A stretch of DNA of 64,000 nt, taken from positions 35,135 to 99,134 of the forward strand of contig OY969603.1 in the NCBI GenBank assembly GCA_963701315.1, given 5' to 3'. The first letter of the stretch is position 1. Every line of letters begins with the position of its first letter. Below are positions 43,297-60,820 of the stretch, piece after piece. The stretch is from an uncultured Acidobacteriota bacterium. GTDB taxonomy: Bacteria; Acidobacteriota; Vicinamibacteria; Vicinamibacterales; Fen-181. The notes beneath the pieces are model-generated. The model was not told the origin of the DNA. It did not search any database and saw only the letters and a program-made list of their open reading frames with translations. The translations under genes and the position numbers were made by a program.

Positions 43297-43545
43297 GAGC
43301 AGGTTGACGATTATGGGCTTGTGGGAATGTGGGAACCCCCGGGGCGCGGGATTTCCAAAGCAGCGTGGGCGCGCGTGCTGGGCGCGTCCACGCCGTCACG
43401 GGCCACGGCTCAAGGGCAGACTCTGATGGCGTGCTCTATTGGGATGAGTGGTCCTTCTCGGCGGTGCAGCGCGCTGACATGTCCAGAGAGCCGCGCCAGA
43501 ATGAACCAGGAATCCAGCGATTTCCTGGGGGTCTGCGAGCGGTTG

Positions 43546-43591
43546 TGGTTGGGGGCGCCGGGATTCGGCCCCGGGACGTCCTGCGCCCAAG
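43546..43591 (-). repeat. Degenerate copy of the tRNA-Pro 3' half (att site)
   Basis: Matches 60390-60434 with 3 substitutions and 1 extra G; preceded by GGTTG like the other two copies. Confidence 0.85.
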
Positions 43592-43654
43592 ATCGGCCTC
43601 CACGGCGCTTCGGCGGACCAGCCGCAGCCGTAGCGCCAGTGCCGTCCCTGAGTC

Positions 43655-44044
43655 CTACTTCTTCCGCTTTGCCGACCAGTTCGACGAACCCATGTCGCCG
43701 AGTGTGACCGTGCCCGTGATGCTGTCGCCGTCGACCTTCCCGCTGAAGCCGATCGAGACCTGCTGGCCCCCCATGTCGACGTGGAGGACGTACTCAATAG
43801 TGCCGTTCTCGACGGTGCCTTCGAGCTTGTCCTCGCCGCCCATCGGGTTCGACTGCGTCCCTGTCAGCTTCTCGCCTTCCTGTTTGTAGGTGGCGAGGAG
43901 CGTCATCGGACCCTCCGGTCCCTCCATGGAGATTTCCCACGTACCGGTCACATCGATCTTCTTTGCCTGTGCCGCCTCCTGCGCGACGAGTCCCGCCGAC
44001 AGGCCGAGCATCACCACACCAGCCACGACGATCAGGCGTTTCAT
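43655..44044 (-). CDS. Hypothetical exported protein
   Basis: Signal peptide, DVTGTW...KLTG...FSGKVDGDSITG...WSAKR. Confidence 0.8.
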   Translation of the reverse strand: MKRLIVVAGVVMLGLSAGLVAQEAAQAKKIDVTGTWEISMEGPEGPMTLLATYKQEGEKLTGTQSNPMGGEDKLEGTVENGTIEYVLHVDMGGQQVSIGFSGKVDGDSITGTVTLGDMGSSNWSAKRKK

Positions 44045-44325
44045 CGTATCCCCTTTCGAGTACCTGACAGCATCCGGGGAGGACGTCAGGCCTCTCCTAG
44101 GCCCAGAGACCATAGCAGGAGGTGTAAGGGCGCAGTCGTAATGATTGGTCGCCGCTCTGTAAAGAACTGTCAGCGTGGAACAACCCGTCCAGACGCAATC
44201 GATACGGCGGTTCGGGCCCTCTGGGAGCCGACCACAGGCGTGGAGCCGCGGTCTCCGGTTGAGGGTTCCCTAGTCGGGCGGCGGTCCGACCAAAGCGCGC
44301 TGTTCCCCGACCGTGCTTGCCCGGG

Positions 44326-45450
44326 CTACGGATCGCGCTTCACGGCCGTGCCCGTCGAGCGGTGTGGGGCGGCCTGGTCTCCCGCGAACACCACGTCGTG
44401 CACCGAATCGATGCGAATGCGTGACCAATCGGCGCGCACGGTCACGACGACGGCTTCGCCGATGCGCGAGACGGGCCCGTGCTCGAATCGCGTGTGCCGG
44501 AACAGGGTGACGCGCTGACCTGCCTCGAGGCCGGCGTTCTGCCCTTGATCGATCACCATCAGCCGTCCCGGCGCGCCCAGCATCTTCCCTTCGTCGCCAA
44601 ACAGGACGCGGGCAGGCCTGTCGAAGTCGGGCGCCCCGTCGGCCTTCGGCAAGGGAAGCGGCTCGGGCGTGAACGCCTCCAACTCGTCTCCGAGCATGAA
44701 CTCGTCGCACGCGTACACGACCGCCACGATGGAGGTCGCCTCCGACACCTCGACGACCTGCACGAGTCCGGCCGAGTGCACCCCGGTGGGGACGGCAGCC
44801 TCGTCCCATAGGAAGTCGCTCGCCCGGTAACTGCGGCGCACGACGAAGTTCTGTCCGACAGCCAGCCCGTCGGCGCTTCCGGCGTCGAGCAGGATCGCAT
44901 CGCCCGGAGCGTACATCGTGCGTTCATCCTCGCGAAGCCCGGCAAGTCGCGCGACGGTGATCGGCTCGACAGTCGGGCGGCCCGGGCCGCACACGGAGTC
45001 GATATCGTGCGGTGCCACCGCGGCAGCCTGCACGCGCGGGCGGGGCTTCGGCACGACGACCGTGCGGACCGGCGGCGCCTGGGCCACGACGTTCACGGTT
45101 TCCTCTAGTCCCGCCAGCCCGAGCTGGTCGTTCACGACGACAACTTGCTGTGGTGGGACCGTAATGCTCTCGTGGGTCGCCGTCGCAAACCCGGCGAGTT
45201 CAAACACCGCGGTGCACGGACCGGACGGCAGACCGGTTACGACGTACTCTCCTGCGCCACCCGTTACCGTCGCGATGACGCCGCTCGATCCCGCGCAGGT
45301 GATCGACACGGTCACGCCAGGCAGGGCTGCCCCCGATGGGTCGGCCAGCCGACCGCCGATTCCGCCGCCCTGGCTCCCCTGCGCGAGTGCGTACGAGGTG
45401 GCGCCCAGCAGTACAACAGCGGCCGAGAGAGAAGCCCGACGAAGCAACAT
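44326..45450 (-). CDS. Exported protein with carboxypeptidase regulatory-like domain
   Basis: GRLADPSGAALPGVTV...FELAGF...LGLAGLEETVNV, then a FlgT-C-like beta region. Confidence 0.75.
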   Translation of the reverse strand: MLLRRASLSAAVVLLGATSYALAQGSQGGGIGGRLADPSGAALPGVTVSITCAGSSGVIATVTGGAGEYVVTGLPSGPCTAVFELAGFATATHESITVPPQQVVVVNDQLGLAGLEETVNVVAQAPPVRTVVVPKPRPRVQAAAVAPHDIDSVCGPGRPTVEPITVARLAGLREDERTMYAPGDAILLDAGSADGLAVGQNFVVRRSYRASDFLWDEAAVPTGVHSAGLVQVVEVSEATSIVAVVYACDEFMLGDELEAFTPEPLPLPKADGAPDFDRPARVLFGDEGKMLGAPGRLMVIDQGQNAGLEAGQRVTLFRHTRFEHGPVSRIGEAVVVTVRADWSRIRIDSVHDVVFAGDQAAPHRSTGTAVKRDP

Positions 45451-45862
45451 AACGACCTCGAGGCAGCCGCGCGGGTTCACCGGTCGACGATGTGCAACGG
45501 CAAGGGCCCCCGCCGCTCCCGCGACCGACCGACACACCACCTCGTCTCTGGTATCGGCGGATGTCTGCCGCCGCATCAGGCGCATTTCGGTTCCGGTGGC
45601 TGAGTGTCCACCGCCCGGACGAATCGCGGAGCCCGCGTACCCATGGCAAACCGGAACCCCGCTTGATGTCGGCCTGCCTGCTGTTCCTGGCCGGCTGCTC
45701 CGCGATCGTTTCTTGCGGCCGTTCTCCGGTCACTCGCCCGGCGTCGCTGACCGAGATGGCGAAGTCGGGGCTCGTGAGGGTATACATCGACTCCGAGAGG
45801 GCCCTTGGTGGATGGGCCACGCCTCTGACTCGCGGGATGAGCCAGTGCGTGAAACGTCTCTG

Positions 45863-46849
45863 TCAGGAGCCGAAGCGCAAGGTCACATCCACCGTCCGCG
45901 CGGCCAGGTTCGGCGTGATCGTGACCGTCATCCCGCCGAGGCGGCTGCGAAGTTGCCCGTCCAGGAATTCATACGGCTGGTCCTCGTTGTAGACGTCACC
46001 AGCCTTGAGCTTCCACAGGCCCCTGATCAGGCGTGCCGATTCGTCATCGACCCCTTCGAGGAAGAGGGTGCCCATGCGGAACGGCGGCCCTTCCTCCACG
46101 TTTACGTCGAAGGCCACGCCCCGAGACCGGTCGTCGAACGCCGGAACGGGATTGATGCGCGCTCCCAGGTAACCGTACCGGCCGTAGGCACGCCTTACCG
46201 CTTTGAGTCCCTCGTCGAACTTCAGCCCGCTGGCCACTTCGTTCCGACCGAGCGGAATCAGTAGGTCGAGCTGCGCGGCTTGGAGGACGTGGTTTCCGGA
46301 CCACTTCACCCCCTGCCATGTGTAGGCGGCGCCCTCGTCAATCGTGCCGATAATGACGACGCCGGCGCAGCCCGAGCCCGAGGCCGGATCTCCGAGACGC
46401 CCGCTCACCTCGCGAACGCTCTCGCGGAGATAGCCTCGTTCTCGGTACAGTGGCGCGAGCGCTCCCTGGAGGAAGGCGAGATTCCCGCTCCGCGAGTATT
46501 CGCGCGTCACCAGGGGGATCGAGACGCGCCGGACCTCAGCCTCAAGGGCGGGTTGGACACCCGTGAGCTTCACGTCGCACACGGGAAGTGAAACGCCGCT
46601 CACTTTGAACAAATGGGCGCGCGCACCGGTCGTGACATTCAGCGTGGGAAAGTAGTCGACTTTGCCCGGTAGTCGCCTGTCGGCTAGGAGGGTCGACAGC
46701 GCCGCGGTAACCTGGTCAACGGCCTCACTCGTGTCCGAGATGCGGCCGTCGAAGGCAGGGAAGCGCAAGCGGACCGCCGCGGACACTTGCTCGTCGCTGA
46801 ACCAGGGGAAGTTATCGAACACGACTGGCGTCTCGGTCGTTGCAGCGCC
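45863..46849 (-). pseudogene. POTRA-domain protein, 5'-truncated
   Basis: VVFDNFPWFSDE, LYRERGYL, IDEG..Y, YGRYGYL, VEEGPPF; no signal peptide or plausible start before an upstream in-frame stop. Confidence 0.6.
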
Positions 46850-47394
46850 TTGATTTCAATGAACTGAGCGAATTTCAACTCAGCTTCGATTCGTAACCCT
46901 CGCACTTTGGCAAGGGAGCGAGAAATGCCTACCCTGACGCGGAGCCTGCCAGTCGTCGCTTGTCGTGTTTTTGCCGTGGGTGGCAAATGGGCAATCCAGC
47001 CCCGACTTTTCCGGGACGTGGACCCAGGTCGGGTCTTACATCGACGCGTGGGCCGAGGTGCCAGCGTACACGTTGTTCGGATGCGGGTTATGCCTTTGGA
47101 TAGGATGTTCGGCGCTATCCGTCAGCGACGCACTGGTCAGTATCATCTCCTTTGCAGCGGCGATCTTGTCGATCCTGTACCATGTGTTCAGCGTTCGAGC
47201 AGCCAAGCGTGCGCTGATGAAGATCAGGCGCGCGGCGGGACGGAAGTAGTGCTAAGTCATGCTGACATGCTGAACTGCTGCGATGGCACGGCTACGGTCT
47301 GCTATTAGCCAAGCCCCGAGCGCAACCCTATCGCTATCGGCGTTCCGAGCGACTTCGCCGGCAGTGCTGACTGCCGAGCCGATCTGCCGGTCGT

Positions 47395-47805
47395 GGGCCA
47401 GCACGCCCAGCGAGCGTCCACGATCGTCAGCGGCGATCGTGCGTCGTTCGAGCAGGCCTTGCGCGCAGAGGGACTTGACGTCGCTGGCCATGCGCTCGCC
47501 GTCGCCGCGGTAAAGCCCTCCGCACAGGTCGCGCTCAAACACGACCCGAAAGCTGCCGGCCGCCACGAGTGTCCCGCCCTCGGTGTCTCGCATCCGATAG
47601 CCGCGGTCGCGAGTCGGAACCACCTCACGCTCGTCGCGCCCGGCAGCGCGAAGTGGTTCGACCGCACAGTCGTTGACCGGCGGTTCGGGTCCCGGGTGTC
47701 CGTGTCGCGCATCAACGAGCGCGCGGACGCGTGGTCGCGTGGAGCCGCGCGATCGGCTTCGCGCGCACGTTCATCATCGCGATCGACATCAAGCCCGCGC
47801 GACAT
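47395..47805 (-). pseudogene. Frameshifted remnant of a mobile-element hypothetical protein
   Basis: MSRGLDVDRDDER... continues in another frame as RDRGYRMRDTEGGTLVAAGSFRVV..RDL; decayed. Confidence 0.4.
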
Positions 47806-47900
47806 GGTGTGCCCGAGGCGGCGAGGGCGCGATTCGCGCCTGAAGAGCGGCGGCGTTGCACGGAAAGCGAATGTGGTTCGCCGAGATGGCGCCGATGGGA

Positions 47901-47930
47901 CAGGAGGCAACAGGAAGCAACAGGTGGCTA
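47901..47930. repeat. Three tandem 10 bp repeats
   Basis: CAGGAGGCAA CAGGAAGCAA CAGGTGGCTA. Confidence 0.7.
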
Positions 47931-47989
47931 CGGTCGGCCACAATCGACCGGCGAGAAATGCGACGGATGCCACGCAACAAACGCCAGGT

Positions 47990-48380
47990 TCAACACGAGC
48001 GCCTTCGCAGACCGGCCGACTGGCCAATTGAGGAGCCAGTCGTGCCCATCTCCGAGGACGGCGACGGGGCCCCTGGCTTTCTGCACGACACCGCTGTCGC
48101 CGTCGTCACGTCCGGTCGTGTCTGCGCCAACGCCGGCCGGCCAGGTTGTCCAAGCGAATGCGCAAGAGCCACTTGCCTCGGCCATGGAGCGGCGTCATGG
48201 GTGACGGGAGGGCGCGACTCAGCGCGTGCACGGTCGAAGGCCCGCCTCGACCGGTGCATACCGGGCAACGTCGCGTTGAGGTAGGGACTCGTCTGTTCAA
48301 GACTCGCGTGTCCGAGCATCTGCTGCGCCTCGTGCAGTGGCCAGCCGCCTTCGAGGAGCCTCGATCCTGCTTCGTGCCGT
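47990..48380 (-). pseudogene. Tyrosine integrase C-terminal remnant, interrupted by the RIT element (upstream piece at about 51805-51840)
   Basis: Rejoined flanks read INLHFHDLRHEAGSRLLEGGWPLHEAQQMLGHASLEQTSPYLN (HxxR, LGH, Y). Confidence 0.85.
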
Positions 48381-48500
48381 TTATGCCGCGCGCGGCATAA
48401 GCGGCATTATGCCGAGCCCGTGATTATGCCGCGTGGGGTGGCGCGAGCACCCATCCGCGCGGCGGGTCCCGCCCTTGCGCTGGCGTGGCGCGCGGCATAA

Positions 48501-49493
48501 TCAGAGTCCCTCCAAGAACGCGAGCAGCTCGTCCTTCGGGCGAAAGCGCGCCCGCCCGCACGGCAGCGGCGAGGTGCGCGCCAGGGCTTCCGCCTTCAGC
48601 CGCAGGTCCGCGTGCAGGTACATCTGGGTCGTTTCGACCGACTCGTGTCCGAGCCAGAGCGCGATGACGGCGCGGTCGATTCCGTGCGTGAGGAGGTCCA
48701 TCGCGGTGGTGTGCCGCAGCACGTGCGGGGTGACGCGCTTGGCCCGCAGCGACTCGCAGTGCGCCGCGGCGGCCCGGGCGTGTCGGGCGACGAGACGCTC
48801 GACGGCATCGCGACTGAGCGGCCCGCCGCGGGTGCTGGGAAAGACGGGATCCGACGGCCCGCCCGGATGGCGGCGGAACCACGCGTCGAGCGCCGCCGCC
48901 ACCTCTCGTCGAAGCGGGGTGCAGCGCTCTTTCCGGCCTTTCCCCGTGCAGCGCAGGTGCGCGCCTGGGCCGAGGATCACCTCGCTGCGTCGGAGCCGCG
49001 TCATTTCCGAGACGCGCAAGCCGGTCTGGAGGGCGACGAGGATCAGGGCCCGATCACGGAGGCCGATCCAGGTGGAGAGCTGGGGCGCGGCGAGCAGGGC
49101 GGCGGCCTCCGCAGGCGTCAGGAAGGCGATGGTCTTCCGCTCGAAACGCCGGCTGGGCATCGCGAGCAGCCGCTGACAGGTGAGGGCGTGGGCGGGCTCC
49201 TGGAGGGCCACGACCTGCGCGAACGCGTGAACGGCTGCGAGGCGGGCGTTGCGCGTGCGGCTGCCATTGTGGCGGTCGCGCTCGAGGTGATCGAGGAACT
49301 CACCGATGAACGCCGGCGACAGGTCGTCCATGGTGAGGGCGGACGGCGCCCGATGGAGACGGGCCGCCGCGAACTGCAGCAGCAGGCGGAAGGTGTCGCG
49401 ATAAGCGGCGATCGTGTGGGGACTCGCTTGACGCTGCTGCGTCAGTCGCTCGGTGAAGAAGCGTTGCAGCCATGCGGAGAAGGGCGGCGTCAT
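48501..49493 (-). CDS. ritC: RIT tyrosine recombinase C
   Basis: SPHTIAAYRDTFRLLL, TGLRVSE, GKGRKER, TPHVLRHT, WLGHES..TTQMY. Confidence 0.93.
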   Translation of the reverse strand: MTPPFSAWLQRFFTERLTQQRQASPHTIAAYRDTFRLLLQFAAARLHRAPSALTMDDLSPAFIGEFLDHLERDRHNGSRTRNARLAAVHAFAQVVALQEPAHALTCQRLLAMPSRRFERKTIAFLTPAEAAALLAAPQLSTWIGLRDRALILVALQTGLRVSEMTRLRRSEVILGPGAHLRCTGKGRKERCTPLRREVAAALDAWFRRHPGGPSDPVFPSTRGGPLSRDAVERLVARHARAAAAHCESLRAKRVTPHVLRHTTAMDLLTHGIDRAVIALWLGHESVETTQMYLHADLRLKAEALARTSPLPCGRARFRPKDELLAFLEGL

Positions 49494-50437
49494 GGCAGGC
49501 GCTCCGGGTCGGGACTGGCCAGGCGGGCCGCGACGCTCGCCAGCATGTCGGGGAGGGCTTCCAGGTACCAATAGGTATCCTGCACGTGCACATGCCCGAG
49601 GTACGTCGACAAGATCGGCAGATCCCGCTCGACTGGCCGGCCGGCGCGATACCAGGCCAGGAGGGTCGTCGCGGCGAACCGATGGCGCAGATCGTGGAGA
49701 CGGGGCCCACGCCCGTGGCGATGTCCGGGCGTCGGCGCGCGCAGCCCGGCCTGGCGGGAGACGAGCGCAAAGGTGTGGCGGGCACTATCCCCGGTCAATC
49801 GGCGCCCGTGCTCCGAGACGAAGAACGCGGGCGTGGTGGGGTGCGGGTGCACCCGACGGCGCACCGCCTCGTAACGGTGGAGCGCGTCGATCGTCGACGC
49901 GTGGACGGGCACGAGCCGCGACTTGCCGAACTTCGTGTGGCGAATCGAGAGGAGGGCGTCGTCGACGCCCACATCCGCGCCGTCGAGCGCGAGCGCTTCG
50001 CTGATGCGGAGTCCGGTCGCGGCCAGGAGCCCGAACACCGTTGCGTAGGTCAGCGCGCGGAGCGCGCGCGGGGAGTGCAGGCGGCGTGCGGCCGCGAGGA
50101 GTCGCGCGATCTCGTCGTCGGTATAGATGTACGGACGCCGCCGCTGATACCGATGCGGCAGGAGGCTGGCCGGGGGCACCTCGGTGCGCGGATCCTCGGC
50201 CTGGCGCCACGCGGCGAACCGCCGCGCGATGCCGAGTCGCCAGGCCCAGGTGGCGGGCTGCGCGGTCGCGGGCGCCATGGCCCACCGCACCGCCAGGTCC
50301 CGGGTGATCACGTCGCTGCCTCCGGCTTCTACAAACTCGACGAAGCGACGGAGGAGTCCGCCGGGGGTACGGCAGGCGACGCTGAACCCGCGACGCAACG
50401 CCAAGTACTCCTCGAGCGCGGTGGCCAGGGAGGTCAC
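49490..50437 (-). CDS. ritB: RIT tyrosine recombinase B
   Basis: PYIYTDDEI, TGLRISE, TKFGKSR, LHDLRHRFA, LSTYLGH..TYWYL; ATGA/GTGA overlaps. Confidence 0.93.
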   Translation of the reverse strand: MTSLATALEEYLALRRGFSVACRTPGGLLRRFVEFVEAGGSDVITRDLAVRWAMAPATAQPATWAWRLGIARRFAAWRQAEDPRTEVPPASLLPHRYQRRRPYIYTDDEIARLLAAARRLHSPRALRALTYATVFGLLAATGLRISEALALDGADVGVDDALLSIRHTKFGKSRLVPVHASTIDALHRYEAVRRRVHPHPTTPAFFVSEHGRRLTGDSARHTFALVSRQAGLRAPTPGHRHGRGPRLHDLRHRFAATTLLAWYRAGRPVERDLPILSTYLGHVHVQDTYWYLEALPDMLASVAARLASPDPERLP

Positions 50438-51657: not shown

Positions 51658-51879
51658 GTCGTCCTCCCTCCCGGCACCTCGTGCCCTGGGAAAACGACAA
51701 CCGGATTATGCCGACTGCGGCAAGAAGAAACTCAGTGGATTGGAACGACAGGCGCGCAGGTGGGGCGTGCTATCGGCATAATCACGGGCTCGGCATAATG
51801 CCGCAAGTCGTGGAAGTGCAGGTTGATTGTCCGGCCCTGTTCCAGTGAGGCAGGAGGCGGGCGCGTGCATTCCCGTCTG

Positions 51880-52035
51880 GCGGCGCGACTCGTTTACCGC
51901 GCCAGAACCGGTCGAACACGTGCGGGGCGGCTTCAGGCGGCAATCGACATCTCGTGTTGGCGGTCACCACCTCCACGGCACCTGAGACCTCGACGGCGGT
52001 CACGTCGATGCGGCCCCGTCTTCCGACACGATCTC
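51880..52035 (-). pseudogene. Histidine kinase HATPase_c-like fragment
   Basis: GRIDVTA...VEVVTANT..LPPEAAPHVFDRFWRG. Confidence 0.4.
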
Positions 52036-52199
52036 GGACATGACTCGAACCGCGAGAAGACCAGGTCGCACGCTGCTCATGATCGCTGCAAAGAACCCAG
52101 GGGCTGCCTCCAGCTTGCGTATTCCGCGACGTAATGAGCTCGTCACTTTGCGGCCGGCGACCGAGATTCACCAGCCGGTCGGGCTTGTGGGCCACTGAG

Positions 52200-55100
52200 C
52201 TACCGCACGCCAGCCCGCAACTCCTGAATGTGGCTCGCCTTGATCACATCGCCTGTGAGCGTCGCCTGCCCATATACGTTGGCCGCAAGGCCAAGCGCCG
52301 CGCGGGCGGCGTCGAGCGCCGCGCGCAGTTCGGTCAAGTGCACCGCCTTGATCGTCGTGCCCCCCACCGCCGCGTCGGTGTAGCTGCCGGGGTTCAGCCC
52401 CGCCAGCGACCGAACGGCGTTGACGGCCGTCCTCAGCTCCGCGAGGTGAACGGCTTTGACGATGGTTCCGGCGGTGAGCGGGTCGTCGGTGAACATCAAC
52501 GTCGTCGCAATGTCGACTGCGCTGTTCGCGGAGACGGAACCGCCCGCAACGCCTCGCACGCGATAGAGATAGGCCTGGTTCGCCGACACGGCGGTGTCGG
52601 CGTAGGACGGACTGTTCGACGTCCCAATCTGAGTAAACGAGCCGCCCGCCGCCATGCGATCGATCTCGTACGATGCGGCGCCCGCCGCCGCCGCCCACTG
52701 CAGGTCCACCTCCGTCGTCGAGACCGCGCTGGCACTGAGCCCAGTCGGGGTGGCTGGCCCGGCGCCCGACGCCTGCGCCGAACAGGTTGCGATGGCTCCG
52801 CCATTCAGACCGGCACAGGACCACGTCCACGGCCCGGAGCCCGCCGCCGGATAGGGCGTGCCCGCCAGGCAGAGATCGGTTGCCAGCGCGGGAGCAGACG
52901 TGCGCGTCGTGCCGTCGGCCGCGCCGCACGCGCCAGCAACGGGCGTCACAATCTGACAGTTCGTGCTGTTCCCCGCAAGGCCCGACAGGCTGGTGATGTG
53001 GCCCGTATTCTGCGCGGCCACATAGAGCGTGCCTTGATTGTCGACCGTCAGGGCGCCAGGCAGGGTGATGCCCGGGACGCTCAGCGTCGTGATGATGCCG
53101 GTGGTCCCGTCCACTCTTCGGACAACGTTTGTGTTGGACTGCGATAGGTAGATGTCCCCCTGGTCATCCGCCGCCAGTCCGACGATTGACCCCGTCTGCG
53201 CCTTCGTCGCCAGGTCTCCGTCTCCAGCGTATCCGTTCAGTCCGATGGTCCCGGCGACGCGCGTGATGATCCCGGTCTGATGGTCCACGCGGCGAACGAT
53301 CGTCCCGTCCTTGAAATAGAGATTGGCGTGTGAATCTATGGCCATCGCGCCGACTTGACCCGACAGGACGGCACTCGTCGCCTGACACCCGTCTCCCAGC
53401 GCGTCCTCGGCCGTGGCGCAGACCGTGCCACCGCCCGCGTAAACAGAGATCCCGCCGCTCGGCGTCAGCCGGGCGATCCACGCCTCTGTCCCGTCCCAAG
53501 GCGAGACATATCCGTTGCCCGCAGAGTCCACTGCGGCGGCCACCATCGCGCCGCCCAGATTGCTGCTGTAGCTCGTCCCATTTGCCGGGAATCCAGGCCC
53601 CCACATGTAGGCGAAACCGATGGCGGTGGTCAGAACGTCGCCGACGCCGTTGACCGCCATACCGTAGATGTTATCCGAATCCCAGAACGCCCAAGCGCCG
53701 TTCGACAGCTTGTAGATGCCGATCGTGCGCGGGGAAGTCCTGCGAACGGCCACGAAGAAGTCCGAGTACGAATCCCACCCCATTGCCACAATCGGTGTTT
53801 CAGGTGCGGTCAGTGACGTCACTGTGCCTGCGGCGCACGCGGTCGACGTCGCCGTGGTCGAGCAGTTCGCCGTGGTCCCGCCGTTCCCGCCACCGCAGGT
53901 CCACGACCAGGGGCCGTTTCCGGAGAGGGTGGCGGGTGATGCCGTGCCGGCGCTACAGAGCCCGGAGGCGGGCGGCAACCCGAAGCTCTGACCGCTCGCC
54001 ATGCCGCACGCTCCGTTCGTGACTCCTTGACCGAGCCCGGCGCTACACGCCGCGTTGGTGCCGCCGTTCAGTCCGGTACAGCCCCAGGTCCAGGGCCCCG
54101 AACCAAGGACCGGGAGCGGGTTGCCGGCGAGGCAGAGGTCGGTTGCGGGACTCGCAGTCGGCGTCGTGCCGTTGGATGCCCCGCATTGGCCGTTCACCAC
54201 CGTCGAAGGCGGGTTGGCGGTACAGAACGCCGCCGCGCCGCCCTGAGAACCGGCACAACTCCAGTACCACGGCCCGCTGCCCTGGACAGTCGAAGAAGCG
54301 CCGACCGCACAAAGGTCACTCGAGAGCCATGGCGGGGTACTGAGAGTCTGGTTATTGGCCGCCCCGCATTGCCCGATTACCGGAGCATCGGTCGCGAACG
54401 CGTTGAGGTTCGCCAACTCGTACACCTTCGAATTCTCCGTGTCGGCCACCCAACCGTTGCCCGCCTGGTCAATCGCGATCCAGTCGATCACGGCAGTCGA
54501 GAGACCGCTTGCGGCCGAGCTGACGGCCAGCTGCGACAAGCCGGGCGGGACCTTGTAGAGCCTGGATCTTGTCGCGACATACACGGTTCCGCCGGCATCC
54601 AGCGCCAGGCTGGCCGGCTGCTCGAGGTTCCGCCAAGTGCCTGCGCCCTCCCAGACCTTGGACCATGCGGCCGGGTTCGTGGCATTAGCAGGTGTCACCA
54701 TCCACGCGGCGCCATTGCAGCCGAACGAACCGTAGAAGCTCGGAAAACACGTGCCGCCGCCACCCGTCGCCACGTAGAGACCGCCGGACGCATCGAGGGC
54801 GAGGGCGTTAATCTGTCCGGTGTACGAGTCCGGGCAGGTTCCGTGTCCACAGCTGGCGACCGTCGTCCCGGCGCCGCCGCTCGTTTTGAACTTCACGACG
54901 GTCCCCGAGACTTGATCGGCCACGTAGACGAAGCCCGATCCGTCTATTGCCAATGGGCGGCCGATCTCGACGCCAGTTGGCGGACTCAGGCAGGTGGTTG
55001 CGCGTTGTGTTGAGGAAACGGAGCCGAGGGGCAGGACGGGCGTCGTGGCCCATACGCAGTTCGACAGGGGATCAGTGACGTAGAGGTTTCCGGCGCCATC

Positions 55101-55694
55101 GATGGCCGCCGCTGTCGTCATCTGGGCTCCGACGCCGAGCGCCGTGCCGTCGACCGTGTAGACTCCGTACTGTCCCTTGTAGAATCCCGTCAGGTAAACG
55201 TTCTCCTTCGCATCCACAGCCAGTGCGGCTGGCGCGATGGGGGTCGTCGTCGAGGTAGTGTTGGTCGTTCCTGGCGGCAACGTCCCGCCACCAATGCCCT
55301 GAAGGTACACCGTGGACACGATCGCGCCGGTTTGACTGACGAACATGACCGCGCCCATCCGGGTGCCCGGAAAGGCCGGCGTGAAGGTCACCTCGACGGT
55401 GCACGTGTTGTTTGTGCTCCACGTGCCGGGAAGACATGATCCCCCGGTCATCGTGAAGTCGGCGTTGAACTGGCCCTGGGTGACCACCGCCGGCACCTGG
55501 GCGAGGGAAAACGTCTGACTGAATTGGTATGTGAGTGTCGAAACGCTGGACGATGCCACGCTCACGGTGCCGAAGTTGGTGCTCCCGGAGACGAGCGCCA
55601 CTTGTCCGTAAACCGGCCGCGCGACCGCGAGCGGAACCAGCAACAGGCAGCAGAGCACGTACGGTCGGGGGACAGCGATCAGAAGCGTACGCAT
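52200..55694 (-). CDS. Large secreted repeat protein (Ig/ASH-like N-domain, NHL-like propellers, four Cys-rich repeats, FN3, triple-repeat C-domain)
   Basis: Signal peptide; CTVEVTFTP..PG.R.GAV; many AIDxxGNxYVxD repeats; 4x GxCG...LCxxG...GPWxWxCxGxxGG; PATPTGLSA...YLYRVRG. Confidence 0.88.
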   Translation of the reverse strand: MRTLLIAVPRPYVLCCLLLVPLAVARPVYGQVALVSGSTNFGTVSVASSSVSTLTYQFSQTFSLAQVPAVVTQGQFNADFTMTGGSCLPGTWSTNNTCTVEVTFTPAFPGTRMGAVMFVSQTGAIVSTVYLQGIGGGTLPPGTTNTTSTTTPIAPAALAVDAKENVYLTGFYKGQYGVYTVDGTALGVGAQMTTAAAIDGAGNLYVTDPLSNCVWATTPVLPLGSVSSTQRATTCLSPPTGVEIGRPLAIDGSGFVYVADQVSGTVVKFKTSGGAGTTVASCGHGTCPDSYTGQINALALDASGGLYVATGGGGTCFPSFYGSFGCNGAAWMVTPANATNPAAWSKVWEGAGTWRNLEQPASLALDAGGTVYVATRSRLYKVPPGLSQLAVSSAASGLSTAVIDWIAIDQAGNGWVADTENSKVYELANLNAFATDAPVIGQCGAANNQTLSTPPWLSSDLCAVGASSTVQGSGPWYWSCAGSQGGAAAFCTANPPSTVVNGQCGASNGTTPTASPATDLCLAGNPLPVLGSGPWTWGCTGLNGGTNAACSAGLGQGVTNGACGMASGQSFGLPPASGLCSAGTASPATLSGNGPWSWTCGGGNGGTTANCSTTATSTACAAGTVTSLTAPETPIVAMGWDSYSDFFVAVRRTSPRTIGIYKLSNGAWAFWDSDNIYGMAVNGVGDVLTTAIGFAYMWGPGFPANGTSYSSNLGGAMVAAAVDSAGNGYVSPWDGTEAWIARLTPSGGISVYAGGGTVCATAEDALGDGCQATSAVLSGQVGAMAIDSHANLYFKDGTIVRRVDHQTGIITRVAGTIGLNGYAGDGDLATKAQTGSIVGLAADDQGDIYLSQSNTNVVRRVDGTTGIITTLSVPGITLPGALTVDNQGTLYVAAQNTGHITSLSGLAGNSTNCQIVTPVAGACGAADGTTRTSAPALATDLCLAGTPYPAAGSGPWTWSCAGLNGGAIATCSAQASGAGPATPTGLSASAVSTTEVDLQWAAAAGAASYEIDRMAAGGSFTQIGTSNSPSYADTAVSANQAYLYRVRGVAGGSVSANSAVDIATTLMFTDDPLTAGTIVKAVHLAELRTAVNAVRSLAGLNPGSYTDAAVGGTTIKAVHLTELRAALDAARAALGLAANVYGQATLTGDVIKASHIQELRAGVR

Positions 55695-55845
55695 TGAGTA
55701 GTCCTCTCCTTCGACAGGGTAGTCACGGTCGCCGAAACGCAGACGTGGCTCGGAGAGCGGCCACGAGGCACTCCACAGCTGAGGTTGTCCTCATCAGTAT
55801 CCTAATGCGAGAGTCAACGGGGGAGCGTCGATTCCGTCCCCGAAC

Positions 55846-56030
55846 TGCGCGATTCTCGATGACGAGATCGTCTGCGTGGGATGGAGAAGGCCGACCGCGT
55901 TTCAATCGCCTGCTGTTCAGGCTTGGCCGGCTTGTGTTCGCCGCGTTCGACCTGCTTTGGCACGACGGTCGGGACCTGCGCCGTGCAGTTGGTGCAGCGC
56001 AAGCGGCAGCTCGCCGAGTTGACTGCTCAG
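55846..56030 (+). pseudogene. ATP-dependent DNA ligase fragment
   Basis: AILDDEIVCV / DGEGRPRFNRLLFR...FAAFDLLWHDGRDLR / LVQRKRQL across frames. Confidence 0.6.
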
Positions 56031-56174
56031 TACGAGCCGATCAGGGACGATGACAGGCTCACGCCTACGTGGAAGCTTCTGAGCGGTATCGCCGCGGAAT
56101 CCGTGAGCCAATTCTCCGCATCCTGACACAACCTGAGGCACGCCCATCGTGCAGCAACTCGAGACCAGGTGGAA

Positions 56175-56615
56175 GAAGCGTCGCGCGGCTCGCCCGCAAC
56201 TTGGGTGTCGATGCGAAGACCGCGGGCAGCTACATCGACCTCCTCGTGGACCTGCCGACCGCCCGCCGGCTCCTGCCGTGGCACGCCAACGTCAGCCAGC
56301 GGCTCGTGAAATCGCCCAAGGTGTACGTCCGCGCCAGCGGTCTCGTCCACGCGCTGCTCGCCATCGGCGACAAGGACACCCTCGTGTCGCACCCCGTCCT
56401 GGGGGCCAGTTGGGAAGGGTTCGCGATCGAGCTGGCGCTGGCCGCAGCCCCCGAAGGCACGGGCGCCCACTTCTACCGCACGAGCGCCGGCGCCGAGATT
56501 GACCGGTTGCTGCACCTGCCCGGCGGCGAGCCGTGGGCGATCGAGATCAAGCGCAGCGTGTCGCCTCGTCCCGAAAAACGCTTCCACCACGCCTGTGCGG
56601 ACCTCTCGCCCGGCG
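56175..56615 (+). pseudogene. AAA ATPase DUF4143 C-terminal fragment
   Basis: LVKSPKVYVR.SGLVHALL, GASWEGF, FYRTSAGAEID, AIEIK; ATPase domain absent. Confidence 0.75.
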
Positions 56616-56820
56616 CCTGGCCGACCGCAGGTACCTGGCTCCACCGTCGACCCGCGGCGCGGAAGTTCGGCGCGAAAGCTGGTTCCGGGTTTGGTGCCGG
56701 CTTCTTTGGGGAACCAGGGCTACGGGTGGGGCCGCCAGGGGAAAGCGCGCCGCTGAATGTGATCCAGACACCCGCACCTAAGTGCTTGCCATTCAGCGGC
56801 TTCGCCAGCGATTTCGAGAA

Positions 56821-56967
56821 GGTTGTGGTCGGGGCGCCGGGATTCGGACCCGGGACCTCCTGCGCCCAAGGCAGAAGATCGACCTACTGCAAGTAATTGT
56901 CAGCACAAGACTTCGAGACGTGATGTCGACTTATCCCCCTTCTTGTCCCCCGGGACGTGTTCACCCC
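56821..56967 (-). repeat. att site: exact tRNA-Pro 3' half (56826-56873) plus a 94 bp island-end arm
   Basis: Ungapped direct repeat of 58686-58832 (offset 1865 bp; 9 mismatches, all in the arm). Confidence 0.95.
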
Positions 56968-57360
56968 GTTCATCGGGCCACCAGTCGAGGCCAGTCTCGA
57001 GTTCGTAGACGGTCTGACCAGCGCAAGAACCGGTGCGCCGAGGCACCTTCACGGTCGTGGGACGGCGAGTTGCTCGGAGATTGTGCGTGCCGCGGTGTCG
57101 CGGCGGCGCTCGCCGAGATCGCCGGGCACCTGCGCTGGGAAGCACACCCGACCGAGACGCTGGGAGTTGCGCGTGGCCTATCTCTCCAACTCCGTGCGGA
57201 CGCGCGCCTCTGGGTCCGAGAGCGCGAGTTCTGCCCGGTGAGTCCTGGTGAGTTGCACGAACGGCTGTCGTGAGGCAGACACAGGAAGTGAACGCTCGGA
57301 CCAGGTCCGCCGCCTGCACCTGCCGTGGCCAGTCTCCCGGCGTGCGACGCGTCGCGGTCG

Positions 57361-57395
57361 TTGACACCTGTCACGTGATGCGTTACACTCGGGCG
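57361..57395 (+). promoter_or_regulatory. sigma70 promoter/operator of higBA, probably leaderless
   Basis: TTGACA-17 nt-TACACT-6 nt-ATG; palindrome TGTCACG-N5-CGTTACA over the spacer and -10. Confidence 0.7.
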
Positions 57396-57677
57396 ATGAT
57401 CAAGACCTTCGCGGACAAGAGGACCGAGGACCTGTTCGTGAGGGGGGTGGCGAGAGGTTGGCCAGCCGACGTCGTTCGTCGAGCCGTGCGGAAGCTCGAA
57501 TACGTCGACTTGGCCACTTGCCTGGACGATCTTCGGACGCCGCCGGGCAATCGGCTTCACGCCCTGAAGGGGGACCGTCAGGGCCAGTACGCCATTGCGG
57601 TGAACGACCAATGGCGTGTCTGCTTCCGGTTCGTCGACGGGGACGCCTACGACGTTGAAGTGTGCGACTACCACTGA
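57396..57677 (+). CDS. higB: HigB toxin (RelE/ParE superfamily, plasmid maintenance killer type)
   Basis: MIKTFADKRTE, DDLRTPPGNRLHALKGDRQGQYAIAVNDQWRVCF, VCDYH. Confidence 0.95.
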   Translation: MIKTFADKRTEDLFVRGVARGWPADVVRRAVRKLEYVDLATCLDDLRTPPGNRLHALKGDRQGQYAIAVNDQWRVCFRFVDGDAYDVEVCDYH

Positions 57678-57686
57678 GAGCAGCGC

Positions 57687-58001
57687 ATGAGCATTCCCAA
57701 TACGCGGCAACTGAAGCGCCGGCCGACGCACCCGGGTGAGATGCTCCGCGAGGACTTCCTTCCCGATTATGGGCTGACGGTGGCCGGTCTGGCAGGGGCA
57801 CTCGGCGTGTCTCGCCAGTCGATCAACGAATTGCTGAGGGGACGCCGCGCCGTGAGCCCGGAGATGGCGCTTCGCCTCTCGCGGCTGTTCGGGAACTCGG
57901 CGGAGTTCTGGCTGAACGCCCAGCGCGCCGTCGACTTGTGGGACGCCGCCCAGGCGATCAAAGACGAGGTCCATCGGATCAAGCCGTTATGCGTCGCCTG
58001 A
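57687..58001 (+). CDS. higA: HigA antitoxin (Xre HTH)
   Basis: PTHPGEMLREDFL, LAGALGVSRQSINE, EMALRL..FGNSAEFWLNAQ. Confidence 0.95.
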   Translation: MSIPNTRQLKRRPTHPGEMLREDFLPDYGLTVAGLAGALGVSRQSINELLRGRRAVSPEMALRLSRLFGNSAEFWLNAQRAVDLWDAAQAIKDEVHRIKPLCVA

Positions 58002-58685
58002 GGCTCAGGGCAGGGCTGGCCGCTGCGCAGACGCGAAGTGCGTCTCCGATCCCATCATTCCCGAGTCACATGCTGATGACCTGCAACGACAACATGGCGA
58101 CTCGGCAACGCAGCCGATAGCTGATGACCGCCGTCTCGAGGTATGCCCGCGGCTTCACGTCCGTACCGTGATCCTACCCGATCGGCACCGCCGCGCAGCC
58201 TGCCGTTCCCGGCGTGGCCTTGCCGACCGGCGAGGCGAATGGGGCTCTGCGCCTGCCGAGTCCGCATACACCGCGCTCGACAGCACGCCGGTTCAGTCAC
58301 CTGGTCTGGCCGATCGGGACGGCGTCGTGCACTCACCGAGGTTCGAGGAGCGCGGTGCTAGGCTCACAGGAACCGTCGGTCGATCGCCCAGATGGGCGCT
58401 GGAGGCCCGTCTCGGTCGCAGGCCGAACGACACGGCCTACGGGCGAGATTACTGGAGAAGCATCGCAGCTCCGCGCGATTGTCGAGGCGACGCCGCCCAT
58501 TCTGAACGGCGGCCTCGTGTGCCCACTCTGGCCAGGACGGGGACGTTCGGCTTGTCCCGCTCTCCCCGAGGTGTCCCAGGAAGGCCCGCGGTCGGGGGAC
58601 AAAAAAGGGGGGATACCTCGGCGCAGCGCGTCGTCCGCGCGCACTGCGCCGTAAGAGACGTGGCTGATTTCCTGGTGTTTCCGAT

Positions 58686-58832
58686 GGTTGTGGTCGGGGC
58701 GCCGGGATTCGGACCCGGGACCTCCTGCGCCCAAGGCAAAAGATCGACCCGCTGCAAGTGATTGTCAGCACAAGACTTCTGGACGCGATTTCGACTTATC
58801 CCCCTTCTTGTCCCCCGGGACGCGTTCACCCC
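58686..58832 (-). repeat. att site: exact tRNA-Pro 3' half (58691-58738) plus island-end arm
   Basis: 48 bp identical to 60390-60437; arm shared with 56874-56967; inverted arm motif at 58593-58615. Confidence 0.95.
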
Positions 58833-58964
58833 CCGTTCCCCCACGCCAGAGCACTCGACCCGACGACGGCACCAGCGAAATCCACGACAGCCTCGCCGAC
58901 GACGCCGGGTTAGTACGCTCGCTACTCGACTGTAGTTCTTGTTCCGAGTACAATTGTTCGCGGA

Positions 58965-59648
58965 ATGAGTACAGACAGGAGCCATACTGGCGACGCGGGG
59001 ACACTGTTGTTCGGGAAGACGCGTCGACAGGTGCTCGCTTGGTTGTATGGCCATCCCGACGAGCGCTTCTACCTGCGTCAGCTGGCGCGGCAGACGTGTG
59101 CGGCACAAGGCGCGATGCAGCGGGAGCTCACCCTTCTGTCGCAGGTCGGGCTCGTCACTCGAACGGCGGAGGGCCGCCAAGTGTATTTCCAGGCCAATCG
59201 TGAGTCGCCGATCTTTTCCGACCTACAGCAGGTGCTCGTCAAGACGGCGGGTGCGGTTGAAGTCGTTCGCGAGGCGCTGCTTCCACTGTCCGGCGCAATC
59301 CAACTCGCGTTCATCTATGGCTCGGGCGCCAGGGGAACGCTGAAGGCTGCGAGTGATCTTGACCTCCTCGTTGTCGGCAGCGCCGCGTTTCGTGATGTTG
59401 CCGCCGCGCTGGATGATGCGCAGCGCCGATTGGGGCGCGACATCAACCCGACCGTGTATCCGACCAACGAATTCGTCCGCAAGATTCGCACGGCGCATCA
59501 CTTCTTGACGACGGTACTGCGCGAGCCCAAGATCTTCGTCATCGGGAGCGATCATGAGCTTGGCCGACTGGCAGAAGAACGGGTGGCTGCTCCAACACGA
59601 CACAAGCGCCCAGGAGATCGCGGACCTGCTCGCCGTCGTCGACCGTGA
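58965..59648 (+). CDS. wHTH-fused minimal nucleotidyltransferase (MNT antitoxin-like)
   Basis: LFGKTRRQVL..FYLRQLAR wHTH; YGSGARG..ASDLDLLVVG (GS-x10-DxD); LGRDINP. Confidence 0.88.
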   Translation: MSTDRSHTGDAGTLLFGKTRRQVLAWLYGHPDERFYLRQLARQTCAAQGAMQRELTLLSQVGLVTRTAEGRQVYFQANRESPIFSDLQQVLVKTAGAVEVVREALLPLSGAIQLAFIYGSGARGTLKAASDLDLLVVGSAAFRDVAAALDDAQRRLGRDINPTVYPTNEFVRKIRTAHHFLTTVLREPKIFVIGSDHELGRLAEERVAAPTRHKRPGDRGPARRRRP

Positions 59649-59997
59649 TCTCGCGGACAGCGCGGCCGAGCAGATCAGCGCAGACTGGCGGATGAACATC
59701 GCGTACAACGCGGCGCTGCAGGCGGCTACTGCTGCCCTGGCGGCCTCCGGGTACAGGGCCGCACGGGAACAGCACCACTACCGAATTATTCAGTCTCTCC
59801 GGGAGACCATTAGCGCAGCGCCTCAACAAGTCGCGGCGCTTGACGCCTTCCGAAAGAAGAGAAACATCACTGGCTATGAGCGCGTCGGCGCCGTTTCCGA
59901 TGCTGACGCAGCGGATATCCGAAAGCTCGCCGTTGAGATCAGGGACGAGGTCATGGCGTGGCTTCGGCGGTCCCGACCCCACCTCCTCCGGCCCTGA
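59554..59997 (+). CDS. HEPN domain protein, partner of the MNT
   Basis: AYNAALQAA.AAL...GYR...HH, RKKRNITGY (R-x4-Y variant); overlaps the MNT gene. Confidence 0.8.
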   Translation: MSLADWQKNGWLLQHDTSAQEIADLLAVVDRDLADSAAEQISADWRMNIAYNAALQAATAALAASGYRAAREQHHYRIIQSLRETISAAPQQVAALDAFRKKRNITGYERVGAVSDADAADIRKLAVEIRDEVMAWLRRSRPHLLRP

Positions 59998-60330
59998 GCG
60001 TCACCGCCGCGAAGGGTTGCCCCTCCCATCGTCGGTGTGGCCCTCGGCGACCGCCCCGGCACGCCGCCACGCGCCGTCCACGGAGGTTCAGATTTCCGCA
60101 CGAGGTCCCGCTCGCCCACAAGTGTGGCAGAGGCGCGGTTGCTTGAGGAACTGCGGCCAGTGTGCCGGCGGCTGGTAAGAGACTACTCCTACCATGCGCT
60201 GATGCGCTGAAAGCAATCGTGGGTGGCGTACAGACCTGATTGTGGACTTGATCCTCGCCGGCTGGCTTTGCGGGAGTAGCGGCCCAAAGGGCAAGGCGGC
60301 GACCAGTAGATAGCAACCCTCCACACACAG

Positions 60331-60356
60331 ACGGGGCACCGTTTCGGGCGCCCCGT
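60331..60356 (-). terminator. Hairpin downstream of tRNA-Pro, possible terminator
   Basis: ACGGGGCGCC-CGAAAC-GGTGCCCCGT followed by a weak U-tract (CUGUGUGU). Confidence 0.4.
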
Positions 60357-60389
60357 TGGAAATCCGTTTCAAACTCGGAAGGCGAAAGG

Positions 60390-60466
60390 TGGTCGGGGCG
60401 CCGGGATTCGGACCCGGGACCTCCTGCGCCCAAGGCAGGCGCGCTACCAGGCTGCGCTACGCCCCG
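60390..60466 (-). tRNA. tRNA-Pro (UGG)
   Basis: 77 nt cloverleaf CGGGGCG/CGCCCCG, D arm GCGC, anticodon arm CCTGC-CTTGGGC-GCAGG, T arm CCGGG-TCCGAAT-CCCGG, encoded ACCA. Confidence 0.97.
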
Positions 60467-60820
60467 ACAGGAATGCAAGGCTGATTCTAGGGCACTTTGC
60501 TACTCGGTGCCACTCCCGCTCAGCCAAGTCCAGTCGACCGCGCCGTCGTCGTGAGAACCGTGGCGCGGTTGCCGACCGGGGCCCCACATGCGCCGGCCGA
60601 ATGATCCCCGGGACGAAGACAGCCAAACCCACGCCTGTCCTCGTGTGGGCGCGAGGCAGACTGAAATAGCGGGATCCGAACTCTCGGACACGCGCAGTCG
60701 CGTCGAGCTGCCTGGCGTTGGGGCGACCGACCACCACGCACCGCGCTGGGTGCTCTCACGCAACCCGATGGCGCGGCGACGCCGGCTCGGTCCGCATGCC
60801 GAGCCGGCAGTTGCGGCAAC

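Follow-up and report, generated by a model that had tools for sequence, protein, structure and literature searches.

Integrase-less elements flanked by attachment (att) sites, termed cis-mobilizable elements (CIMEs), are known from tandem arrays formed by integration, decay and accretion, as described for the ICESt1/ICESt3 family of Streptococcus in the relevant part of PMC5704250. Such elements no longer have genes for integration and transfer but retain attL and attR, and are found at the 3' end of a tRNA gene or another target gene. Toxin–antitoxin (TA) loci are characterized in a passage of PMC2654758 as lying preferentially in genomic islands and as being 'refractory to gene efflux'. Here we describe a tandem array of small, TA-bearing units behind a tRNA-Pro(TGG) gene in a 64,000-nt stretch of DNA (the window; contig OY969603.1, positions 35,135 to 99,134 of the forward strand, assembly GCA_963701315.1) from an uncultured Acidobacteriota bacterium of the Vicinamibacterales lineage Fen-181. 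We consider it probable that the array arose by integration into tRNA-Pro and has decayed to CIME-like remnants, with TA pairs as the last survivors. Coordinates refer to the window unless given as genome coordinates, units are numbered outward from the tRNA, and relatives are designated by G numbers and their loci by L numbers.

The sole tRNA gene in the window is tRNA-Pro(TGG), on the minus strand (ARAGORN; Rfam RF00005, 63.5 bits), and an Rfam scan of 43000–61000 found nothing besides it. A repeat finder recovered four in-register copies (repeat family D1) at spacings of 13279, 1865 and 1699 nt, in which the copied part of the tRNA spans the 5' strand of the anticodon stem through to the CCA. 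These copies lie downstream of the tRNA, that is, at lower coordinates, and delimit units of ~1.65 kb (unit 1), ~1.82 kb (unit 2) and ~13.2 kb (unit 3; Table 1). A preliminary description, made from the letters of the window alone, had placed recurrences of the tRNA 3' half at 58691 and 56826 (exact) and 43546 (degenerate), delimiting three units, and both the repeat finder and BLAST bear this out. Its further statement that each unit carries one TA module holds for units 1 and 2 but not for unit 3, where no TA pair was recognized.

Both limits of the array can be placed by comparison with relatives. The 5' side of the tRNA (61.5–64 kb) is syntenic with seven of them at 70–77% nucleotide identity. 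The sequence beyond the degenerate copy, which was also aligned with others in a set of eight sequences, is 84% identical over 107 nt to G002, and taking it as the original downstream flank gives an array spanning 43594–60389. No further copy of the tRNA end was found near the array, and a second candidate native flank (CGGCT-rich, present in G002, G003, G006 and G007) has no counterpart there. Proteins encoded downstream of tRNA-Pro in eight relative loci map to scattered sites in this genome; the gene adjoining the tRNA in G005, for example, matches genome 501–2492, and the original neighborhood could be defined only as far as the ~80-nt flank.

Units 1 and 2 encode no recombinase that we could detect, as the preliminary description had also concluded. 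None of the 47 six-frame matches to PF00589 in the genome falls within them (genome 91960–95523), the four longest reading frames outside their TA genes have no Pfam match, and tblastn with eight integrase or excisionase queries from relatives gave nothing better than E = 0.4 within 56874–60389. The only intact PF00589 genes in the array are the three genes of a transposable element inserted in unit 3, described below. Unit 3 itself retains a C-terminal integrase fragment whose tblastn matches (E = 4e-10 to 2e-8; 43–45% identity) are integrases or pieces of them that adjoin copies of tRNA-Pro in G018 and G028. The inserted element parts this fragment from a short upstream piece ending in an H-D-L box (~51805–51833), such that the integrase is interrupted in its H-D-L-R-H box, and the gene is truncated at its 5' end as well.

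Unit 2 contains a type II HigBA operon, with the toxin gene upstream and 9 nt between the genes. Both proteins score well above their profile cut-offs, and a promoter-like site lies before higB, in keeping with the promoter that the preliminary description had assigned to the operon. The operon is bordered by two gene scraps. One is the end of an HNH endonuclease gene, a complete homolog of which (PF13395/PF01844) lies in the G016 tRNA-Pro array; the other corresponds to residues 22–69 of a 179-aa PIN protein (L019:7244-7783, PF01850) encoded beside the tRNA-Pro of G003. Most of the tblastx signal in the non-coding parts was compositional noise, and only the HNH and PIN matches were retained; ~67% of unit 2 has no recognized gene. 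The tail of the HNH gene, the frameshifted head of the PIN gene and the truncated, interrupted integrase of unit 3 are the marks expected of decay by deletion.

The cargo of unit 1 is a pair of overlapping genes, the first of which encodes a winged helix-turn-helix (wHTH) protein with a minimal nucleotidyltransferase (MNT) domain, including the motif G-S...D-x-D. It reaches 22 bits against the MntA equivalog model (cut-off, 60), far enough below the cut-off that it is not an MntA ortholog. Its 147-aa partner has no Pfam or NCBIfam match, and a sequence search of the PDB returned nothing meaningful. A structural model of the partner (pLDDT 93.9) is a helical bundle, and its top PDB structure matches are HEPN proteins, led by 2hsb (E = 3.4e-3, TM 0.59/0.67) and followed by the sacsin HEPN domain, ST0689 and chains of MntA–HepT, with TM scores of 0.54–0.67 and none at E ≤ 0.001. 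In the nearest Atlas clusters, 14–29% of members contain PF05168, and 22 of 40 related loci have a homolog of the partner beside their MNT gene. Together with the profile match of the MNT protein, this agrees with the earlier assignment of the pair as MNT–HEPN.

The resemblance to type VII TA systems extends to the MNT motif and, on the model, to the HEPN fold of the partner, but not to the HEPN catalytic motif. Canonical HEPN RNases have the motif R-x4-6-H, which the partner lacks; what is conserved instead is R-x-x-R-N-x-x-x-Y, with the tyrosine invariant in 10 of 10 aligned homologs. From these motifs, the pair may be described as MNT/HEPN-like, with a partner that may differ in activity from the usual HEPN RNases. 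A promoter scan of the region found four sites where 0.3 were expected, one of them before the MNT gene. Approximately 37% of unit 1 has no recognized gene.

Homologs of both operons occur well outside this locus. Close relatives of higBA were found in 6 of 40 relatives in varied settings (72.6–82% nucleotide identity over ~630 nt), plus one further match of 515 nt at 77% on a short contig; one lies in the G016 tRNA-Pro array, one in an array of attC cassettes in G034 and the others in loci without a tRNA gene. Between genera the operon is 80–82% identical, compared with 72–77% for neighboring chromosomal genes within a genus, which indicates that higBA moves horizontally. The MNT query retrieved 37 loci from many phyla at 31–57% identity, of which nine have a tRNA or transfer-messenger RNA (tmRNA) gene within 4 kb. 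Four of eight such loci that were probed contain a second partial copy of tRNA-Lys, delimiting units of 1.15–3.4 kb.

This breadth raises the possibility that the TA operons are themselves mobile, and either landed secondarily in att and arm remnants or replaced earlier cargo by recombination. We regard such an origin as very unlikely here, even though the six higBA settings, among them the attC array, and the wide spread of MNT/HEPN-like pairs are what it would lead one to expect. Neither operon is bracketed within its unit by a transposase, a target duplication or a repeat, and the scraps beside higBA are as expected from deletion inside a larger island. Moreover, the higBA operon of G016 (82% nucleotide identity, in a 1.0-kb unit) has the same orientation and the same promoter as that of unit 2 and adjoins the same core flank. 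These two HigBA units share the genes, the promoter and 25–70 nt beside one core, while their arms and the remainder differ.

Comparison with relatives revealed a series of states at this tRNA. The tRNA-Pro gene is present in 40 of 40 relatives and is 100% identical across several genera. Among the loci retrieved, 11 relatives have further partial copies, delimiting 15 units: three with a complete PF00589 catalytic domain (G002, G007 and G018), two with only integrase stumps (186 aa in a 1.7-kb unit of G015 and 134 aa in a 1.8-kb unit of G028) and ten with no PF00589 match. In G007, the catalytic-domain gene lies ~140 bp from the tRNA and is accompanied by an excisionase-like HTH_17 gene; in G018, the tRNA fragment is flanked by two integrases. 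Seven of the units are at most 2 kb. Two of these contain only a TA pair (HigBA in 1.0 kb of G016; DUF433 with a DUF5615/PIN-like gene in 0.94 kb of G022), one has an antitoxin-like HTH_37 gene (G006), two have the integrase stumps and two are gene-free repeats of 0.2 kb (G003). The G016 array has three units and no integrase, and encodes a Gp49–HTH TA pair, a HIT protein, two HNH proteins, HigBA and a split TonB receptor.

These data also bear on whether the array could have formed by homologous or homology-facilitated recombination anchored on the conserved tRNA, through unequal crossing-over or en bloc uptake of foreign tRNA-Pro regions. A gene identical across several genera is a ready anchor, the flank of each copy resembles the sequence after tRNA-Pro in some relative (for example, the start of unit 3 matches what follows the intact gene in G006 and G011 at 85–87% identity), and the repeated block reaches 150 nt. 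We nevertheless judge this highly improbable, given that two of the units here, and likewise those of G016, G007 and G002, have copies beginning at one fixed point, tRNA position 29/30, as would be expected of an integrase crossover. Start points in the anticodon stem are linked to integrase sublocations. Integrases also lie beside such copies in three relatives, and unrelated contents combined with diverged arms argue against recent duplication.

Units 1 and 2 share an end sequence, or arm, located upstream of each exact core in tRNA orientation and so at the tRNA-distal end of its unit. With the core included it forms a 150-nt repeat of 93% identity (repeat family D2); without the core, BLAST aligns the two arms over 93 nt at 91.4% identity, or 81 of 90 columns, after which similarity drops. 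This agrees with the preliminary description, which had reported a shared 94-bp end of ~90% identity despite unrelated cargo. Both arms contain a 26-nt purine-rich motif 55–80 nt from the core, and beyond the 58691 core there is a third, looser copy in inverted orientation. No other site in the 7.04-Mb genome has the motif. The junction of units 1 and 2 therefore has the appearance of an entire attP, with an arm site, a core and an inverted arm site, a layout expected from a tandem of two related elements. The tRNA-proximal end of unit 1 has no arm motif, and this unit has an arm at one end only. The flank at 58640–58690 resembles those following tRNA copies in G016 and following an orphan fragment at genome 1852358.

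The arm was found in this genome only. BLAST against 400 other genomes of the order gave no arm, only five matches of 24–36 nt (E = 0.001–0.01) treated as chance, and against 400 genomes of the phylum again none, with one 45-nt match (E = 8.7e-4) treated likewise. Two scans of metagenome contigs (arm motif plus core, and junction plus core) and a scan of viral contigs (arm motif plus core) did not find it, and blastn of 58560–58870 against plasmids and phages found nothing, in collections that may omit records of the window's own genome or very near ones. The search that the preliminary description had proposed, for the arm bounding other cargo in relatives or metagenomes, returned only the copies already known. 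Of 401 genomes searched for a short junction comprising six arm bases, a pyrimidine and the core, only two contain it: this one, with two copies, and G002, with one. G002 is the only relative with the same arm–core junction, and there the stop codon of an intact integrase (359-aa frame) precedes the core by 38 bp, at the distal limit of a 49-kb island. An intact integrase linked to the arm, which had also been proposed as a check, is seen only at the level of this junction; the full arm was not found in any other genome searched, and the best match to the G002 integrase in this genome is only 31% identical. An interpretation of the arm as the 3' end of an integrase gene was set aside as not demonstrable, the signs of it being an alignment of 75 nt with the end of the G002 island, at only ~50% identity, and a faint P-x-D-x-K match seen by eye.

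We infer the following order of events. At least three elements in succession would have integrated site-specifically at tRNA-Pro(TGG), crossing over within its anticodon arm and thus entering its 3' half; every such event would have restored the tRNA and moved the older 3' half outward. All three elements would later have lost a working integrase. Units 1 and 2 would have retained both att sites and the end arm, with its putative integrase-binding motifs, as deletion trimmed the remainder and left one self-promoted TA operon intact in each. A deletion that removed the antitoxin gene would kill or arrest the cell, and deletion end-points would then probably pile up against the TA pair. Survival of the TA pairs in this manner fits the island association and resistance to loss noted for such loci in the part of PMC2654758 cited above. 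The units are most likely immobile now in this genome, and could still be lost by recombination between their direct repeats of 48–150 nt.

Several observations weigh against this sequence of events. The arms differ at ~9% of positions, whereas neither core has departed from the tRNA (0 changes in 96 nt), which indicates that the units came from two related but distinct elements; they look young although already gutted. This combination fits the integration of elements that had already lost their integrases at least as well as it fits decay in place, although gene conversion by the tRNA could also have kept the cores identical. In both units, the arm similarity stops at nearly the same point (~94 nt), which is not expected from two independent deletions, and the inverted motif flanking the 58691 core produces an intact attP-like site. 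No gene scrap was identified in unit 1, and no ancestral island with this arm plus an integrase was found. Finally, tested chromosomal TA loci were not always protective against deletions, according to the same part of PMC2654758.

Several of these points also enter the case for units 1 and 2 as non-autonomous cassettes, moved in trans by an integrase encoded elsewhere or on a transient element and accumulating at tRNA-Pro in an integron-like manner, which is close to what the preliminary description had proposed. The sharp common inner limit of the arms despite unrelated cargo, the restriction of the motif to three sites with one inverted, which gives the 58691 core its arm–core–arm symmetry, and the perfect cores beside diverged arms make recent integration of gutted elements in trans conceivable. 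The recurrence of TA-only, tRNA-bounded units in G016 and G022, the MNT modules at tRNA-Lys in metagenome-assembled genomes (MAGs) of Proteobacteria and the horizontal movement of higBA point the same way. We nonetheless consider this explanation unlikely. Unit 2 has pseudogene scraps and much non-coding DNA, the arm of unit 1 is single-ended, the operons are self-promoted, unlike those of integron cassettes, and only two copies of the arm exist across all collections searched. The genome has no close homolog of the integrase linked to the G002 junction, and the HigBA unit of G016 does not share the arms of unit 2, which indicates that the unit as a whole is not conserved.

Accretion and decay is favored by the scraps, by the integrase stumps in relatives and by the lack of a family of arm-bounded cassettes. 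The structural part of the preliminary description (bounds of the kind made by tyrosine integrases from tRNA 3' copies, tandem stacking and a shared arm) stands, while its streamlined minimal cassettes do not agree with the two scraps and the largely non-coding DNA of unit 2. It had also named the outcome that would count against it, namely small units that are remnants of integrase islands with no variable small cargo. The integrase-bearing remnants of 1.7–1.9 kb in relatives correspond to the first part of that outcome; the second is contradicted by the varied small TA cargo that relatives have.

Table 1 Features of the tRNA-Pro(TGG) array and its surroundings (window coordinates)
Feature	Position	Strand	Evidence or remarks
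tRNA-Pro(TGG), intact, attachment target	60390-60466	-	ARAGORN, Rfam; promoter-like site 60513-60484
Unit 1 (1651 bp)	58739-60389		tRNA-proximal hairpin end without arm motif, ~390 bp without recognized gene, MNT/HEPN-like pair, arm 1
HEPN-fold partner, 147 aa	59554-59997	+	Overlaps MNT gene
wHTH-MNT	58965-59648	+	PF01909 25.3 bits (cut-off 21); PF18765 25.2 bits (below cut-off); MarR_2 weak
Promoter-like site before MNT	58926-58954		Promoter scan
Arm 1, unit 1	58739-58832		26-nt G5-ACAAGAA-G5 motif at 58791-58816
Att core between units 1 and 2	58691-58738	-	48/48 to tRNA positions 30-77 (BLAST)
Unit 2	56874-58690		Arm 2, HNH scrap, higB, higA, PIN scrap
Looser inverted arm-motif copy, other side of 58691 core, 70-100 nt away	58591-58620		Inverted repeats I1, I2, I6, I8
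PIN gene scrap: one frameshift, one in-frame stop	58016-58158	-	tblastn E 2e-7, 10/14 + 18/33 identities
HigA antitoxin	57687-58001	+	TIGR02607 107.7 bits (cut-off 47.7); PF01381
HigB toxin	57396-57677	+	PF05015, E 4e-17, 62.9 bits (cut-off 27)
higB promoter-like TTGACA-17-TACACT with palindrome	57361-57389		Kept in G016
HNH endonuclease scrap: last 59 codons, HNH motif gone	57094-57273	+	tblastn 35/59 identities, E 1e-15, to G016 L012:15523-16290
Arm 2, unit 2	56874-56967		Motif at 56926-56951
Att core between units 2 and 3	56826-56874	-	49/49 to tRNA positions 29-77 (BLAST)
Unit 3 (13.2 kb)	43594-56825		
DUF4143 C-terminal fragment	56069-56896		Unit 3
NHL-repeat protein	52200-55694		Unit 3
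Three-recombinase element, 3.4 kb	48402-51804	-	Three tandem genes with PF00589; terminal inverted repeats of 31 nt, perfect
Tyrosine integrase C-terminal fragment	48106-48400	-	PF00589 positions 133-168
POTRA protein	45863-46822		Unit 3
CarboxypepD_reg protein	44326-45585		Unit 3
Degenerate tRNA 3'-half copy, far end of array	43546-43593	-	95% over 40 nt; 92% over 51 nt with one indel
Presumed original downstream flank, ~80 nt	43466-43545	-	Like sequence after intact tRNA-Pro in G002, G005, G015 and G017 and after most distal fragment in G016

The three-recombinase element in unit 3 is an independent transposable element, not an island integrase. It occurs in four genome copies at 99.7% identity (the others at genome 391152–394554, 6758233–6761635 and 6824307–6827709), and its three adjacent tyrosine recombinase genes, inverted-repeat bounds and multicopy state correspond to elements of the 'recombinase in trio' type. 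All four copies have one end against a palindromic sequence and the other against codons for the H-D-L-(R-H) box of an integrase, and the element seems, judging from these junctions, to insert specifically into this conserved box of integrase genes in either orientation. Elsewhere in unit 3, the product of 52200–55694 is a 1,164-aa NHL/teneurin-like repeat protein whose gene has internal DNA repeats (repeat family D3, spacings 177–183 and 1080 nt), and a 739-nt stretch at genome 3364441 is 79% identical to it.

At the far edge of the array, 41388–42719 is the DDE_Tnp_1_4 (PF13701) transposase gene of an insertion sequence (IS) whose end lies near 43244–43296, ~250 bp from the last tRNA fragment, with two 19-nt direct repeats at 43252 and 43278; the transposase gene itself begins ~0.8 kb beyond the presumed downstream flank. 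A 79%-identical copy of this IS lies 547 bp from tRNA-Pro in G035, which belongs to a different family. The G035 locus was at one point considered an ancestral empty site on the strength of this homolog and was rejected, as an IS transposase has no synteny value. In unit 1, the 60320–60389 segment, including its G+C-rich hairpin, resembles by eye genome 1862387–1862446 (after tRNA-Pro(CGG)) and the sequences after tRNA-Pro(TGG) of G028 and G022; tRNA-proximal island ends seem to mimic native tRNA trailers. A stretch of ~90 nt in the gene-free part of the same unit (60027–60120) is 77% identical to genome 3130841–3130933 and 85% identical to three sites in G012, with no Rfam match.

Traces of related events were found elsewhere in the genome. 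The orphan fragment mentioned above (38 nt; genome 1852358–1852395, L001 4359–4396) matches the 3' end of tRNA-Pro(TGG) and not that of tRNA-Pro(CGG), which lies 10 kb away, and, counting the core, the 82 nt running into its downstream flank are 84% identical to the 58691 copy and the flank behind it. The intervening 10 kb encodes FeoAB, a glycosyltransferase and an IstB fragment, with no integrase. At genome 2121090–2121627, a tyrosine integrase gene broken into two pieces reads toward the 3' end of tRNA-Pro(GGG) and is 65% identical over 104 aa to a G018 integrase beside a tRNA-Pro(TGG) fragment. In sequencing reads (the single matching run, which shared 10% of the words, and two others from its study), the organism was present at ~2–3× as contigs of 190–276 nt, none spanning a junction. 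Read joints at 85% likeness lay in the multicopy three-recombinase element or came from other organisms and were not used.

Two further arrangements at tRNA-Pro were seen in relatives. In G003 (L019, contig C10, 6443–6986), two tandem repeats of 237 bp lie behind the intact tRNA-Pro, both with the T-loop-to-CCA segment (29 nt) copied at their ends, and a PIN gene comes next; the crossover point of these repeats differs from that of the anticodon-stem copies. The 5' 40 nt of tRNA-Pro are duplicated in G015 (L016 8422–8461) and G035 (L022 18432–18474), 1.7 and 16 kb away, respectively, the G015 unit being one with an integrase stump. These 5'-end duplications suggest elements that insert at tRNA-Pro with the opposite polarity.

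Beyond the order, a locus on a Proteobacteria MAG contig (L044 2536–5254) represents an autonomous counterpart of unit 1. Within 2.6 kb it has tRNA-Lys(CTT), a 407-aa integrase, a wHTH-MNT gene, a HEPN gene (PF05168, E = 6e-4) and, as the bounding fragment, 24 nt repeated from the 3' end of the tRNA; beyond this fragment lies another integrase-like frame. The two are alike in their cargo (the MNT proteins are 47% identical) and in being bounded by a tRNA and its 3' fragment, but L044 has its own integrase and its TA genes run in the direction of the tRNA, whereas those of unit 1 run against it. Integrase-less MNT units also occur at tRNA-Lys, two of them with DUF6933 and MNT (L051 and L068) and one with MNT, HEPN and PIN genes (L050). 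TA-only units bounded by tRNA fragments might form a widespread non-autonomous class, in which each member retains an addictive pair together with its att core and no more than two arm sites, is moved in trans by the tRNA-targeting integrases of passing islands and collects at tRNA hot spots in several phyla, but we think that quite unlikely. If such a class did exist, surveys that discard att-delimited intervals below 2 kb would miss its members. One recent pipeline, as outlined in bioRxiv 10.64898/2026.01.13.699239, counts att-delimited islands only above 2 kb, and units like those described here would therefore go uncounted by it. Mobilization of units 1 and 2 in trans, if it occurred, would place them with the smallest known integrative elements.

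The array represents a clear example, from a little-studied soil or sediment lineage, of islands piling up at one tRNA gene and decaying, and TA pairs as its longest-lasting parts are consistent with persistence through being hard to delete. Together, the mini-island with an integrase and a TA pair, the stump units, the TA-only units and a higBA integron cassette form a series that is possibly useful for delimiting islands. The last of these lies in G034 (L027, contig C86, ~3790–8480), where at least six attC sites (inverse core CTAAC, core GTTAG) with bulged hairpins of −40 to −56 kcal/mol are spaced 0.57–1.7 kb apart. A homolog of higBA (74% nucleotide identity) fills one cassette, and the 10.8-kb contig has no PF00589 match. 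The same gene pair is thus also carried as a true integron cassette in this order.

Integron arrays resemble the present locus in that small units without a recombinase, some with TA pairs, are stacked at one site. Here, however, the units have no intI or attI, no attC hairpins and no promoterless cassettes; their limits are direct repeats of the 3' half of a tRNA, quite unlike the attC sites of G034, their operons are self-promoted, scraps of genes and extended non-coding DNA are present, and only two of them share an arm. The integron-like character proposed in the preliminary description is not supported. SCC (staphylococcal cassette chromosome)-like elements at staphylococcal orfX/rlmH are likewise recombinase-less, flanked by direct repeats, arranged in tandem and movable in trans, but depend on a serine recombinase and have a different target and cargo. 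Islands at the Dehalococcoides tmRNA gene are also comparable, by the description in PMC3146451, in being site-specific, in targeting a small-RNA gene and in having repeats of its 3' fragment. When the literature was searched for tandem TA islands without integrases, the papers retrieved dealt with TA systems in unrelated contexts, which does not show that the pattern is unpublished.

The closest correspondence is with CIMEs, and with att-flanked, integrase-less tandem elements already described under that name in the relevant part of PMC5704250, the claim that the locus represents an undescribed system is not supported. Nothing in units 1 and 2 marks their ancestors as conjugative or mobilizable, and the units are far smaller (1.65–1.8 kb), reduced to a TA pair and without a functional partner element in the array. 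The gene scraps of unit 2 show decay. Like CIMEs, units 1 and 2 have att sites on both sides, here derived from the tRNA, and no genes for integration, excision or transfer.

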